This document shows, piece by piece, positions 67-3,958 of a DNA stretch of 64,000 bases (within the stretch, counting starts at the first letter, position 1; every line of letters begins with the position of its first letter). The notes below the pieces were generated by a model. It had not been told where the DNA came from and did no database searches. It saw only the letters and a list, made by a program, of their open reading frames with translations. The stretch spans positions 64,001 through 128,000 of the forward strand of contig CAXXDV010000001.1 in the NCBI GenBank assembly GCA_963674745.2. The letters run 5' to 3'. A program made the translations under genes and the position numbers. This DNA comes from Desulfosudaceae bacterium (lineage in GTDB: Bacteria; Desulfobacterota; Desulfobacteria; Desulfobacterales; Desulfosudaceae).

Positions 67-242
67 TTTAGACAACCGGCAGAATGACTGCAGCTCCGCG
101 ACCTGAACCTTGCAGGTGTGGCCAAACGGCCTTAATCCAGGACAACTCGTGACAGATCCGGGTAAACTTTTTATTTTATTCTTTAATCTTTATTTAAAAA
201 TATGAACTAATTAATGATGGTAATGCGTTAAGTGGTTTTAAG

Positions 243-1313
243 ATGTTTTTCAGGCGCCAGCAAAATGTAAATGAAAAAGCGGCTATTCTTCGGGAGATCT
301 ATTACGATAACCTGAAAATGGCCGGTAAACCGATTGCGGATCCCGGCACGGCCTCGATGTGGCGGGCCTTTATAAAACCGCTTCAGACACTGGCGGTGAT
401 GCTGGTGGTGGCTTTGTTTCCCTTCTCGGAGCTTGACCCGGCACTTCATGTCAAAGAAAAGCGTTCTTTGCCCGTATTGTCTTCGTCTGTCGAGGCGGCA
501 TTTAACATAGCACAGCAAGCTGGTGCAATGCCTGCCTGGGGTTATGTGCCTCCCGACAATCCGGATTTGGCGGATTACAGTCGTTTGCTTTCGGGAAACG
601 ATAAGGTACGGTTGTCATCTCTGTTCGGACTTGGTGTTAAAACAATCGTTATCGATCCCGGCCATGGCGGCAGGGACCCCGGTGCCATAGGCGCAAGGGG
701 CACGATGGAAAAAGATATTACCCTTGATGTGGCGCTGAAACTCAAATCAAGACTGATCGGGCTGGGCCTTTACAATGTGCTGCTCACCCGTGAAAAAGAC
801 CATACCCTTTCACTGGCTGACAGGGTCCAATTTGCAAAAGACAACAAAGCGGACCTGTTTATTTCCGTTCATGTGAATTCACTTCCCAATGAACGGTTGA
901 ATATTATTGAGACTTACTATTTTGGCGCGCCGCTGAATTCGGAAACGATTCGTCTGGCAGAACAGGAAAACAAAGAATCTCATTTTTCAGTAGGAGAGCT
1001 TGACGCGATTATCCAGGATTTCGGTAACACGTTAAAGCGGCAGGAATCGGCGAAACTGGCGACCGCTATTCAGACCAGTCTCTTTAAAAATCTTAAATAC
1101 CAGGATGCCCAGGTCCTGGATTTTGGTATCAAGATGGCGCCGTTTGTCGTTTTGTCCCAGATAGAAGTACCGAGTGTTTTGGTCGAGATATCATGCATAA
1201 CAAAAGCCAGGGAGGAAAAGAAACTGGCCTCTTCCAAATACCGCTCAAAAGTGGCATCTTTTATTGAAGAAGGCATTGTCGTTTATTTGGAAACTCAGGA
1301 TTTCAAATTATAA
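243..1313 (+). CDS. N-acetylmuramoyl-L-alanine amidase (Amidase_3, AmiC-like) with N-terminal membrane anchor
   Basis: Motifs IVIDPGHGGRDPGA, EK..TL, ADLFISVHVNS, APFVVL..PSVLVE; hydrophobic stretch LAVMLVVALFPF. Confidence 0.93.
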   Translation: MFFRRQQNVNEKAAILREIYYDNLKMAGKPIADPGTASMWRAFIKPLQTLAVMLVVALFPFSELDPALHVKEKRSLPVLSSSVEAAFNIAQQAGAMPAWGYVPPDNPDLADYSRLLSGNDKVRLSSLFGLGVKTIVIDPGHGGRDPGAIGARGTMEKDITLDVALKLKSRLIGLGLYNVLLTREKDHTLSLADRVQFAKDNKADLFISVHVNSLPNERLNIIETYYFGAPLNSETIRLAEQENKESHFSVGELDAIIQDFGNTLKRQESAKLATAIQTSLFKNLKYQDAQVLDFGIKMAPFVVLSQIEVPSVLVEISCITKAREEKKLASSKYRSKVASFIEEGIVVYLETQDFKL

Positions 1314-1326
1314 GAGGAGAAAACAC

Positions 1327-2391
1327 ATGAATGAAAACAATCAGGCCCCGGACACCGCTGAAGAGACAAACGACAAGACTGAAAACACTGAGGTCCTTAA
1401 TATCGGTATTGATTTAGGTACTTCCAGAAGTGCCATATCGGCCAGCAATGGCAGCAAAATCTGGATTGAAAGCTTCGTCGGCTGGCCCAAGGACTTTATC
1501 GCGCAAAAAGTTCTGGGCAAACAAACCCTGTTCGGTGCAGAAGCGCTGGAAAACAGATTGTCACTGAAGATTTCCCGCCCCCTGGAACGGGGTGTCATCA
1601 AAGACGGTTCCGAGCACAGCAAAACGGCCGTGAAAGAGCTGGTCGGTCATTTAATCAAAATGGCTAAAAAAAGCAACAACTACACAAAAACCCGCGCCAT
1701 CGTCGGGGTACCGCCCGAATCTTTCAAGGTCAATAAAATGGCCATCAGGCAGCTTGTGGCCGATTTTGCCGACGCCATCATGGTGGTCTCCGAACCTTTC
1801 TCCGTGGCTTACGGGCTCAACGCCTTGAACAACGCCATGGTCATCGATATCGGTGCGGGAACCATGGATTTCTGTATCATGCGCGGAACAATGCCCTCTG
1901 ATGAAGAGCAAAAAACAATTCTAAACGCCGGTGATTTTATTGATCAGCAGCTTAAAACCTATTTGAGCGAACGTTACCCGAAAGCTGATTTCACGGATCA
2001 TATGGTTCGCCGTTTCAAGGAAGAGCACAGCTTTGTGGGAGAACCGGAAAAGAAAGTGATGGTGGAGATCCCCGTCGAAGGGAAGCCCACCATGCACGAT
2101 ATTACAGCTGAAATGCGCCGTTCCTGCGAAAGCATTTTACCGGGGCTGGAAGAAACCATGCTGGAAATGATTGCCGGTTTTGATCCGGAATTTCAGAAAA
2201 AGGTCCGGAACAATGTAATCCTGGCCGGCGGCGGCAGTCAGATCAAAGGTCTTCGGGAACACATTGAGGGCGTTCTCAAAGAATACGGTCCGTGCAATGT
2301 GCAAGTCATTTCCGACCCGCTTTTCGGCGGTGCCGACGGCGCCCTTGAGCTGGCCAAGGAAATGCCGGATGAATACTGGGAAAACAGTTAA
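1327..2391 (+). CDS. MamK-like bacterial actin (MreB/MamK family)
   Basis: Actin phosphate loops IGIDLGTS and VIDIGAGT, adenosine loop LAGGGSQIKG; MamK-type segments VGWPKD, VVSEPFSVAYG, GTMP..EEQ, EEHSFVG and a C-terminal ALELAKEMP.EYW. RBS GAGGAG precedes ATG 1327 (the ORF track starts 21 codons earlier). Confidence 0.85.
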   Translation: MNENNQAPDTAEETNDKTENTEVLNIGIDLGTSRSAISASNGSKIWIESFVGWPKDFIAQKVLGKQTLFGAEALENRLSLKISRPLERGVIKDGSEHSKTAVKELVGHLIKMAKKSNNYTKTRAIVGVPPESFKVNKMAIRQLVADFADAIMVVSEPFSVAYGLNALNNAMVIDIGAGTMDFCIMRGTMPSDEEQKTILNAGDFIDQQLKTYLSERYPKADFTDHMVRRFKEEHSFVGEPEKKVMVEIPVEGKPTMHDITAEMRRSCESILPGLEETMLEMIAGFDPEFQKKVRNNVILAGGGSQIKGLREHIEGVLKEYGPCNVQVISDPLFGGADGALELAKEMPDEYWENS

Positions 2392-2455: not shown

Positions 2456-2520
2456 GGGTTCAAGGATTCAAGGGGTCGAGGGGTCAAGTGTTCGTTGCGG
2501 TTCTTGACCCCTTGGCTCCT
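2456..2520. repeat. octamer inverted-arm repeat, family B, overlapping the tilS 3' end
   Basis: GGGTTCAA GGATTCAA GGGGTCGA GGGGTCAA ... CTTGACCCCTTGGCTCC. Confidence 0.75.
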
Positions 2521-3958
2521 TCTTAAAAATCATCGCCTTCAGCACCCGGGTGGTGCCCGGCCTAACCTTGACCGGATCAGCCGTGCGGTAACCGGCCAGC
2601 CAGATGATCTGTCCCCCTGAAGCAACCACCGGGCAGGCCCGGCGTTGCTTTCGGGGGATCTTGTTATTAATAAAAAAATCTTTGACCTTCTGGTGTCCCT
2701 TCATGCCCAGAGGAACAAAGCGATCTCCGGGCTGAATGTTTCTCACTGTCAGGGGAAAAACGAGTTTTTCCAGATCGAAATAAGCGACATCCGCCCGGCT
2801 CTCTTTAACGTTTCCGACAGCTTCAGGCAAGACAACGGTAAAATCTATTCTGACGCCGATGTCCGGGATTATTAACGAATCGTTTCCTGCTCCCTGATCA
2901 AGCACGTTCCGGGAAAAAACAGGCCCGGTCCCGGTTATCCCTTCGGCCCGGTCCGAAGCCGGCCCGAAAGCCAACCGGTCTCCGTCTTTGTCCACCACAA
3001 CACCATCGGTCATCTGTATCGTAACGGATTGGTCTTTATCAAGGCACCCGACGACCGCCTCAACCCGCTCAAAGGTGATCTTTAGCAGATCGCCCTTTAA
3101 GCTCGCCAGCGCTTTTCTGATCAGCCGCCGTTGGACAGCCCGCGGCTGCGCCGTCATCAGGGGAACAGAAAGCGTCACGCGGTGGCCTTTGCCCTTCAGC
3201 AGCATCCCGGCAAAAGCATCATCAATTAATGCCTCAAGCCACTCATCTTCCGCCCGAAAAATTTCAGCCAGACGGTTCAAATTTCCGGTCAGATTCGCAT
3301 TGTAGCCCCGCTGCAAACAGGGAATAAGCTCATGACGGACACGATTCCTCAAAAAGCCCGTGTCGTCATTGGTTTCATCGACAACAAATTCCAGGCCGGC
3401 TTTTTCGACCGCTGTTTTAATCTCGGCCCGGGTCAGGTTGATCAGCGGGCGGATGATTTTGCCCTCCCGGACAGGCGGGATACCGGACAGCCCGGTCCGG
3501 CCGCTGCCGCGCAGTAACCCCATCAATACCTGCTCGGCATTGTCGTCCGCATGATGCCCGGTGGCAATCTTGTCATAGCCCTGTGCGGCAGCCGTTCTGT
3601 CAAAAAAATCATACCGCACCCGCCGGGCGGCATCTTCTATGGAAAGCCGGTGCTTTTCCGCAAAACCAGGGATGTCAACGAGTTCCGCGTGAAACGACAA
3701 CCCGTATTCACCGGCCAGTTGCCTGACAAAGGCCATGTCTCCGTCGGCAGCGCTCCCTCTTAGACCGTGATTGAGATGTGCCACGCCGAGACGGGAAAGG
3801 GATAACCGTTCGGCCAGCCGGACCAGGCACCACAGCAGGGAGACCGAATCAATCCCCCCTGAAACGGCCACCAGAACCGATTGGCCGGGAAGGATCATGT
3901 GATGATCGGCCATGGTCCGGGCGACTTTTTTCAACATATCCTGGTTAAAATCCTTCAA
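2468..3958 (-). CDS. tilS: tRNA(Ile)-lysidine synthetase
   Basis: VAVSGGIDS PP-loop, HLNHGLR, GHHADDNAEQ, RPLI, RNRVRHELIP, TilS_C domain; start could be ATG 3937. Confidence 0.96.
   Translation of the reverse strand: MKDFNQDMLKKVARTMADHHMILPGQSVLVAVSGGIDSVSLLWCLVRLAERLSLSRLGVAHLNHGLRGSAADGDMAFVRQLAGEYGLSFHAELVDIPGFAEKHRLSIEDAARRVRYDFFDRTAAAQGYDKIATGHHADDNAEQVLMGLLRGSGRTGLSGIPPVREGKIIRPLINLTRAEIKTAVEKAGLEFVVDETNDDTGFLRNRVRHELIPCLQRGYNANLTGNLNRLAEIFRAEDEWLEALIDDAFAGMLLKGKGHRVTLSVPLMTAQPRAVQRRLIRKALASLKGDLLKITFERVEAVVGCLDKDQSVTIQMTDGVVVDKDGDRLAFGPASDRAEGITGTGPVFSRNVLDQGAGNDSLIIPDIGVRIDFTVVLPEAVGNVKESRADVAYFDLEKLVFPLTVRNIQPGDRFVPLGMKGHQKVKDFFINNKIPRKQRRACPVVASGGQIIWLAGYRTADPVKVRPGTTRVLKAMIFKKEPRGQEPQRTLDPSTP

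Follow-up and report, generated by a model that had tools for sequence, protein, structure and literature searches.

A MamK-family actin and its bitopic amidase partner: a probable two-gene operon for a cytoskeleton-guided cell-wall hydrolase in Desulfobacterota and other bacteria

What does an actin of the MamK family do in a bacterium that is not magnetotactic, and what is the meaning of its placement directly behind a gene for a cell-wall amidase? The question is raised by the first 2.4 kb of a 64,000-nucleotide stretch of DNA (the window) from a Desulfosudaceae bacterium (assembly GCA_963674745.2, contig CAXXDV010000001.1, positions 64,001 to 128,000; G000:C1:64001-128000), in which two open reading frames (ORFs) on the same strand encode an Amidase_3-type amidase (P0002, 243-1313) and an actin-like ATPase (P0001, 1327-2391). 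MreB, FtsA, ParM, and MamK are bacterial actins known to guide wall synthesis, division, plasmids, and magnetosomes, respectively. The unit described here is an undescribed, horizontally mobile two-gene module, and its actin represents a distinct subfamily of the MamK family that is defined by the bitopic amidase partner. The pair is probably an operon for a cytoskeleton-guided cell-wall hydrolase. The central features are:

243..1313, forward strand: bitopic Amidase_3 N-acetylmuramoyl-L-alanine amidase (P0002), 356 aa (Pfam PF01520, E 2.9e-47)
1314..1319, forward strand: GAGGAG ribosome-binding site of the actin gene, immediately 3' of the amidase stop (read in the sequence)
1327..2391, forward strand: MamK-family actin-like ATPase (P0001), 354 aa, member of the amidase-linked clade (NF040964, 415 bits; 5jyg, E 2.4e-79)

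The two genes are tightly spaced. The TAA stop of the amidase (1311-1313) and the ATG of the actin (1327) are separated by 13 nt, and the GAGGAG lies 7 nt upstream of this ATG, so that the spacing and the separate ribosome-binding site given for the actin in the initial annotation were both seen. The conservation of this arrangement was followed in MamK-family loci drawn from 201 genomes of the order, 401 genomes of the phylum, contigs of named genomes, and metagenome contigs. After removal of near-identical copies and with only full-length matches kept, an Amidase_3 gene was located directly upstream and on the same strand in 29 of 29 actins whose identity to P0001 is 49% or more (counting that of the window), whereas none of the 39 assessable loci among the 45 less similar actins (at least 700 nt of upstream sequence) contained an amidase anywhere. 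The synteny that the initial annotation had singled out for checking is thus conserved, and the pairing is not due to chance. Two loci (L072, L085) were too near a contig edge for assessment, a partial actin (L083) is accompanied by the amidase, and in L030 the amidase is cut off at the contig end; L031 and L033 are identical, and L023 and L024 nearly so. In the relatives, the genes are separated by 0-15 nt or overlap, with the GGAG of the actin inside or adjoining the 3' end of the amidase. Moreover, pairwise distances of the catalytic domain and of the actin are strongly correlated (r 0.96; 0 of 2000 permutations as high), which indicates that both genes travel together.

Among the named hosts of the pair are Desulfosudaceae, Desulfosarcina cetonica JCM 12296, Desulfatitalea, Desulfobacter, Desulfocapsa, Defluviicoccus, and metagenome-assembled genomes (MAGs) of Bacteroidota, and, by cluster membership, sequences with Nitrospira (a MAG) and Acidobacteriota names. 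Two of these loci show peculiarities. In a Bacteroidota MAG contig (JAJCYR010000091.1; L031/L033), a 17-kb stretch with the pair is present as two inverted copies without a single difference, owing either to a genuine inverted duplication or to an error of assembly. In the chromosome of Defluviicoccus sp. SSA4 (L029), the amidase is split over three reading frames next to an intact actin, and could be either a pseudogene or the product of long-read frameshift errors.

No third conserved gene was found around the pair in the loci of relatives, and in the window itself no third gene follows the actin. A scan of 15 of the 22 same-strand ORFs listed immediately after the actin in relatives identified three that encode SPOR-domain proteins (L066 and L068, both with a receiver domain, and L078). 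SPOR domains bind glycan strands that have been stripped of their peptides by amidases, and the presence of such proteins in some lineages links the module with what amidases produce. In three metatranscriptome libraries (two studies), pieces of both genes are found in contigs at 90-99% identity, and two of these contigs bridge the amidase-actin junction (1225-1439, X2 record 11; 1280-1549, X3 record 17). The runs cover a fraction of 0.06-0.09 of the window as contigs, uncovered parts being uninformative and depth not a ranking of expression. These contigs hint at co-transcription of amidase and actin in close relatives.

Two quick IQ-TREE trees (108 and 85 rows; LG+C20, supports from the Shimodaira-Hasegawa-like approximate likelihood ratio test, SH-aLRT) were rooted with the genome's own MreB. 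In both, all amidase-linked actins, P0001 among them, fall into a single clade (SH-aLRT 100; 24 rows in the 85-row tree). A deep sub-branch of this clade contains L071, L072, L078, and P0123 (Acidobacteriota name), and the copy of a genome of the same genus is placed in another sub-branch than that of the window. Separate clades are formed by the magnetosome MamK of Desulfobacterales (100), a presumed Bbp group (100), BeeR-like proteins (95-98), proteins with long N-terminal extensions (98-99), and a group with an FtsZ-MamK fusion (96-98).

Several of these other branches deserve mention in their own right. The well-supported clade of P0125-P0148 possesses N-terminal extensions of 190-900 residues without a Pfam domain, and an amidase domain was found in none of 18 scanned long N-terminally extended MamK-family proteins. 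P0171 is an FtsZ-MamK fusion; the longer P0162 and P0172 belong to a different clade and have shorter, unnamed extensions. In family f108 of the phylum sample (small genomes, 2.3-2.7 Mb), a MamK-family match was present in 7 of 8 genomes. Six of these (L049-L054; G219, G260, G296, G328, G359, G446) are full-length frames of 338-340 aa with ~47-48% identity to P0001 and have no amidase nearby, and the seventh copy (G473, L060) is broken. Two MamK-family genes stand in tandem in a genome of 3.3 Mb from the order (L011/L042, G078:C23), in the clade of the FtsZ-MamK fusion, and likewise in G414, G470, and G519.

Is the actin truly MamK-like, and if so, is it a displaced magnetosome gene? P0001 reaches 415 bits on the NCBIfam subfamily model for MamK (NF040964, cut-off 400, residues 24-353). 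Its best solved relative is MamK 5jyg (residues 24-352), followed by BeeR 8r2n (E 2.9e-39), with MreB 1jce at E 5.2e-13. The cut-offs of MreB models were missed (78.6 vs 293 bits for PRK13927, 64.7 vs 365.75 for TIGR00904), as was that of the BeeR equivalog NF053558 (201.5 vs 530 bits). The phosphate 1, phosphate 2, and adenosine motifs of an actin-fold ATPase and the catalytic glutamate of VVSEPF are present, and the corresponding D29-S33 (DLGTS), D174-T179 (DIGAGT), L299-S304 (LAGGGS), and E156 (VVSEPF) are invariant in 16 clade members and align to 5jyg. The segments that the initial annotation had taken as MamK-type rather than MreB-type (VGWPKD, VVSEPFSVAYG, GTMPSDEEQ, SFVG, and ALELAKEMPDEYW) indeed align to their 5jyg counterparts and are absent from the genome's own MreB. 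The protein begins with an acidic N-terminal extension of ~23 residues.

The alternative raised in the initial annotation was a relocated mamK in a magnetotactic sulfate reducer, i.e. an actin that aligns magnetosomes and has the amidase as an incidental neighbour. P0001 does pass the MamK cut-off, the same order includes truly magnetotactic genomes with MamK in mam clusters, and the genome holds a weak MamI-like match (C3:2191327-2191524, reverse strand) of 29.6 bits against a cut-off of 80, which has no counterpart in any of 14 control genomes. The score of P0001 is only slightly over the cut-off, whereas true magnetosome MamK proteins of the same order score 460-507 bits and form a separate clade. 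The genome (5.55 Mb, three contigs, 99.96% complete) encodes one MamK-family gene and one MreB (C1:1968962), and searches with the MamB, MamE, and MamP models gave nothing above cut-off in it. Reference magnetosome clusters of the order (L038 and L039) combine MamK (507 and 483 bits) with MamM/B-like, MamN-like, MamE-like, and MamP-like genes, and L039 also with FeoB. When all ORFs of both clusters were searched against the genome, only generic HtrA, CDF, and FeoB paralogues were found at scattered positions, and the cluster-specific ORFs had no match. The MamI candidate was discarded as a 71-aa two-helix ORF beside a Bat operon, NamZ, and RNase H, in no magnetosome island, and NF040962 was rejected as a Mam model, being an unrelated family (near_HgcAB). 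No mam context surrounds the actin: the 12 kb left of the window, where mam genes would have refuted the reading of the initial annotation, contain BipA/TypA, LarB/LarC-like, and metabolic genes and no mam genes, as judged by reading translations. Finally, the amidase accompanies all 29 members of the clade, the cultured Desulfosarcina cetonica among them. The organism is not magnetotactic, and the genome searches together with the tree largely refute the relocated magnetosome gene, which we regard as extremely improbable.

What, then, is the partner, and how might an actin reach it? The amidase clearly belongs to Amidase_3 (161.4 bits, gathering cut-off 27), and its top Foldseek matches are AmiA (8c2o), AmiB (8c0j), and AmiC (4bin) of E. 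coli. It stays below the NCBIfam equivalog cut-offs of all three (AmiA 116 vs 400, AmiB 95 vs 532, AmiC 96 vs 700 bits), and no AMIN domain was found in it by the Pfam scan. All full-length partners share a common build:

273..323, forward strand: conserved cytoplasmic N-terminal helix motif of the amidase, residues 11-27, EKAAILREIYYDNLKMA (alignment A1, motif profile, AlphaFold2)
354..416, forward strand: predicted transmembrane helix, residues 38-58, preceded by a basic stretch (AlphaFold2 and hydrophobicity; topology from prediction)
423..629, forward strand: predicted disordered periplasmic linker, residues 61-129, poorly conserved (predicted local distance difference test, pLDDT, <50; no conserved columns)
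645..1277, forward strand: Amidase_3 catalytic domain, residues 135-345, with an AmiA/B/C-type insertion at ~230-277 (Pfam, alignment, AlphaFold2, Foldseek)

The AlphaFold2 model of P0002 (mean pLDDT 65) accordingly consists of helices at 7-26 and 38-58, a low-confidence linker at 61-129, and a catalytic domain at 134-355, and a hydrophobic stretch occupies the position of the membrane helix in 16 of 16 aligned partners. The amidase would thus be a type II membrane protein with a cytoplasmic N-terminus. Four residues (H141, E156, H210, E315), which we take from the solved AmiB/AmiC amidases to be the zinc ligands and the catalytic Glu, are invariant in these 16 partners (alignment A1), showing that enzyme activity is under selection. 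Two further amidases are encoded in the genome, a 662-aa protein with AMIN and Amidase_3 domains and a 238-aa Amidase_3 protein. Compared with the AMIN-bearing paralogue, the bitopic enzyme without AMIN appears as an extra copy that requires other means of targeting.

Such means may be provided by the cytoplasmic tail. In the alignment of 16 partners, the tail follows the consensus K-x-A-I-L-R/K-x-I/V-Y-x-D/E-N-L/R-R/K-I, with L16 and N23 invariant and I15 nearly so, and the remaining tail, membrane helix, and linker are variable. A profile of the motif recovers the held-out partners L009, L024, L045, L046, L065-L070, and L083; the deep sub-branch carries a recognisable variant (...VLREAVAENLDVI...), and the motif is also found in the frameshifted Defluviicoccus amidase copy. 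Across the whole genome, the only match of the profile is the P0002 ORF itself (E 2.3e-15; next at 0.18), and beside the MamK-family actins that are not linked to an amidase no match at E <=1 was obtained in loci with 1.5-10 kb flanks. A word-based search with tail residues 1-62 gave 9 candidates and 4 matches, all of them Amidase_3, a number too small to judge other types of protein.

The bitopic build also invites the opposite assignment of roles, in which the amidase serves as an anchor that fixes the filament to membrane and wall and the filament positions some other cytoplasmic cargo. MamK-family filaments do position cargo in magnetotactic bacteria (PMC11929497), and the N-terminal extension of the actin is acidic, a membrane-targeting sequence not having been noticed there in analyses that included no search aimed at one. 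Against a mere anchor speak the invariant zinc-ligand and catalytic residues, and against cargo the lack of a third conserved gene in the relatives' loci and of the tail motif on any other protein of the genome. Those third genes that do occur encode SPOR proteins, which points to wall chemistry. We therefore consider this assignment quite unlikely.

A different possibility is that the actin acts as a switch, its ATP-driven assembly relieving autoinhibition of the amidase through the membrane helix and location being secondary. FtsEX, a cytoplasmic ATPase, acts in such a manner through EnvC on AmiA and AmiB. The catalytic domain is nearest to the autoinhibited division amidases AmiA, AmiB, and AmiC, including the insertion at ~230-277 with invariant E242, N243, and E268, and the tight coupling of the two genes would favour a switch as well. 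However, mechanical signalling across the membrane is hard to picture with a disordered linker of ~70 residues, and the conserved unit does not encode a LytM-type activator, which makes a switch of this kind unlikely.

The favoured reading is that of a filament that holds or positions the amidase. In the proposed mechanism, the ATP-dependent, filament-forming actin of this distinct MamK subfamily would polymerise beneath the membrane and bind the cytoplasmic N-terminal helix of the amidase. The filament would thereby set the place, and perhaps the timing, at which the periplasmic amidase acts as glycan strands lose their peptides, and the resulting denuded glycan would in some lineages be bound by a SPOR-domain protein from the next gene downstream. 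Polymerisation of the actin, the membrane topology of the amidase, binding of the tail to the filament, and the cellular site of action are inferred. The stand-alone module of a MamK-type filament and a membrane-anchored hydrolase suggested in the initial annotation is upheld by the exclusive synteny, the correlated distances, the tail motif, and the lack of magnetosome genes, with binding and positioning as its presumed steps.

Several observations weigh against this reading. AlphaFold2 confidence for the tail helix is merely ~56-60, and only three positions (G94, V102, and F182) distinguish the actins of the clade from other MamK-family proteins, so that no clear partner-binding surface emerges on the actin. 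Amidase-linked copies are rare and patchy (among the genomes sampled, 4 of 201 in the order and 3 of 401 in the phylum, with none in two genomes from the same family), which fits an accessory rather than a core role. The RNA-library contigs may contain DNA and are no proof of a single transcript, and the backbone of both trees, from quick searches supported by SH-aLRT only, is without resolution. Moreover, several partners possess RR just before the hydrophobic segment, resembling a twin-arginine translocation (Tat) signal, of which P0002 has a single R. The hydrophobic segment could thus be a cleavable export signal, and if it were cleaved, the mature amidase would not remain tethered.

The twin arginines bring in a further explanation, namely that actin and amidase serve one process, e.g. 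cell separation in aggregates, and are inherited together as an operon without binding each other, and that the N-terminal motif serves export or membrane insertion, for instance as the n-region of a long signal peptide. AmiA and AmiC of E. coli are Tat substrates, and the RR ahead of the hydrophobic segment in several partners would agree with this. Yet P0002 and its closest relatives lack the twin arginine, and the motif is confined to this amidase lineage and has persisted from phylum to phylum, in contrast to the remaining signal-like region, which drifted. An invariable adjacency of overlapping or nearly abutting genes is, in addition, typical of subunits that act together. A functional link of this indirect type is therefore improbable in our view, and a filament that guides the amidase through its tail is preferred.

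How does such a module compare with known systems? In Bacillus subtilis, the actin homologue MreBH governs where the hydrolase LytE acts on the cell wall; LytE, a secreted enzyme of the NlpC/P60 type, has its gene apart from mreBH, and no cytoplasmic tail is known to take part. FtsEX-EnvC-AmiA/AmiB and the AMIN-domain amidases AmiB and AmiC of E. coli share the catalytic domain and the regulatory insertion with P0002, which differs in lacking AMIN and in having a membrane anchor and cytoplasmic tail instead, in a unit without a LytM partner. MamK of Magnetospirillum magneticum AMB-1 (5jyg, 5ljv, 5ljw) has the NCBIfam family, the nucleotide-binding motifs, and a C-terminal ...PxxYW in common with P0001; the latter belongs to a separate clade with a lower score (415 vs 460-507 bits), occurs in a genome without magnetosome genes, and has an obligatory amidase partner, which magnetosome MamK does not.

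The closest parallel in design comes from bactofilins. In Hyphomonas neptunium and Rhodospirillum rubrum, an lmdC-bacA operon encodes the bactofilin BacA and LmdC, a bitopic M23 peptidase whose cytoplasmic N-terminus (residues 1-38) is bound by BacA via a conserved motif with a KD of ~15 uM (PMC10945521). Both systems have an operon with the hydrolase preceding the cytoskeletal gene and a bitopic enzyme with a cytoplasmic tail, but the polymer is a nucleotide-independent bactofilin there and an actin-fold ATPase here, the enzyme an M23 peptidase there and an Amidase_3 protein here, and the tail motif a beta-hairpin there and a predicted helix here, with presumed binding. On this comparison, the filament would most likely hold the amidase, or set its position, by way of this tail, like BacA does with LmdC, and the module would follow a known theme, a cytoskeletal polymer that tethers a bitopic wall hydrolase.

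Two MamK relatives have been described from organisms that are not magnetotactic. Bbp ('big bacteria protein') is a MamK-like actin that large non-magnetotactic Desulfobacterota and other bacteria possess alongside MreB, and in its operon bbp is joined by a hypothetical and a Kelch-like gene but not by an amidase (Geelhoed et al. 2023, PMC10580974), a gene context that differs from that of P0001. The presumed Bbp clade (L012, L014, L015, L016, L018, P0158), which is labelled by the host list of that paper, does not include P0001, is 38-40% identical to it, and has no amidase nearby. BeeR of non-magnetotactic Verrucomicrobiota is a three-stranded tubular actin with a disordered N-terminal extension (PMC11929497). 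P0001 differs from it in its separate clade and its score on the BeeR model (201.5 vs 530 bits), and no amidase was found in the BeeR-like loci L089, L090, and L092, L091 offering merely 199 nt of upstream sequence. No paper on a pairing of an amidase with a MamK-like actin was found in full-text searches, which did not cover subscription journals and bioRxiv supplements.

The surroundings of the pair are ordinary. Just outside the window on the left lies a divergent gene for a BipA/TypA-like GTPase (from reading the translation), and two more features were noted within the window:

149..177, forward strand: candidate sigma-70-like promoter, weak and uncertain (9 of 12 consensus positions)
2468-3958, reverse strand: tilS, convergent with the pair (PP-loop and TilS_C domains)

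The convergence with tilS on the right agrees with the initial annotation, which had also given the pair a shared upstream promoter. The latter claim was not confirmed: its single site is weak, and the scan of the region for promoters and terminators gave nothing exceeding shuffled sequence. Since sigma-70-like matches are no commoner than in shuffles (4 vs 2.9 +/- 1.6), a shared promoter is not established. Between the stops of the actin and tilS, a G-rich repeat of CAAGGGGT-like octamers occupies positions 2454-2492. CAAGGGGTCGAGGGGTCAAG with up to 2 mismatches has 78 copies in the genome compared to 0 for the reversed control, and many unrelated RNA-library contigs, which differ in their flanks, match here and nowhere else. 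The repeat probably represents an intergenic element that is dispersed in the genome and resembles the repetitive extragenic palindromic (REP) type.

The recurrence of the pair in several phyla suggests that the site of wall cutting is directed by a filament inside the cell. A more far-reaching version, which we put forward only tentatively, would make it a third actin-based system of peptidoglycan control beside MreB and FtsA, in which a MamK-like filament captures a WH2-like amphipathic tail helix of a bitopic amidase and sets the site of denudation outside from within, SPOR proteins read the mark in some lineages, and the two-gene cassette moves between phyla. If the guided-hydrolase reading is true, the family would have acquired a new job, with a MamK-type filament reserved for an enzyme that cuts the wall, and the module would represent a simple, transferable two-gene system for how the cytoplasm places peptidoglycan hydrolysis. 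One of its hosts, Desulfosarcina cetonica JCM 12296, is a cultured strain from a culture collection, which opens this hypothesis to bench testing. For genome annotation, 'MamK family' or a mamK marker is no sign of magnetotaxis in Desulfobacterota, Bacteroidota, Acidobacteriota-type, and other genomes.

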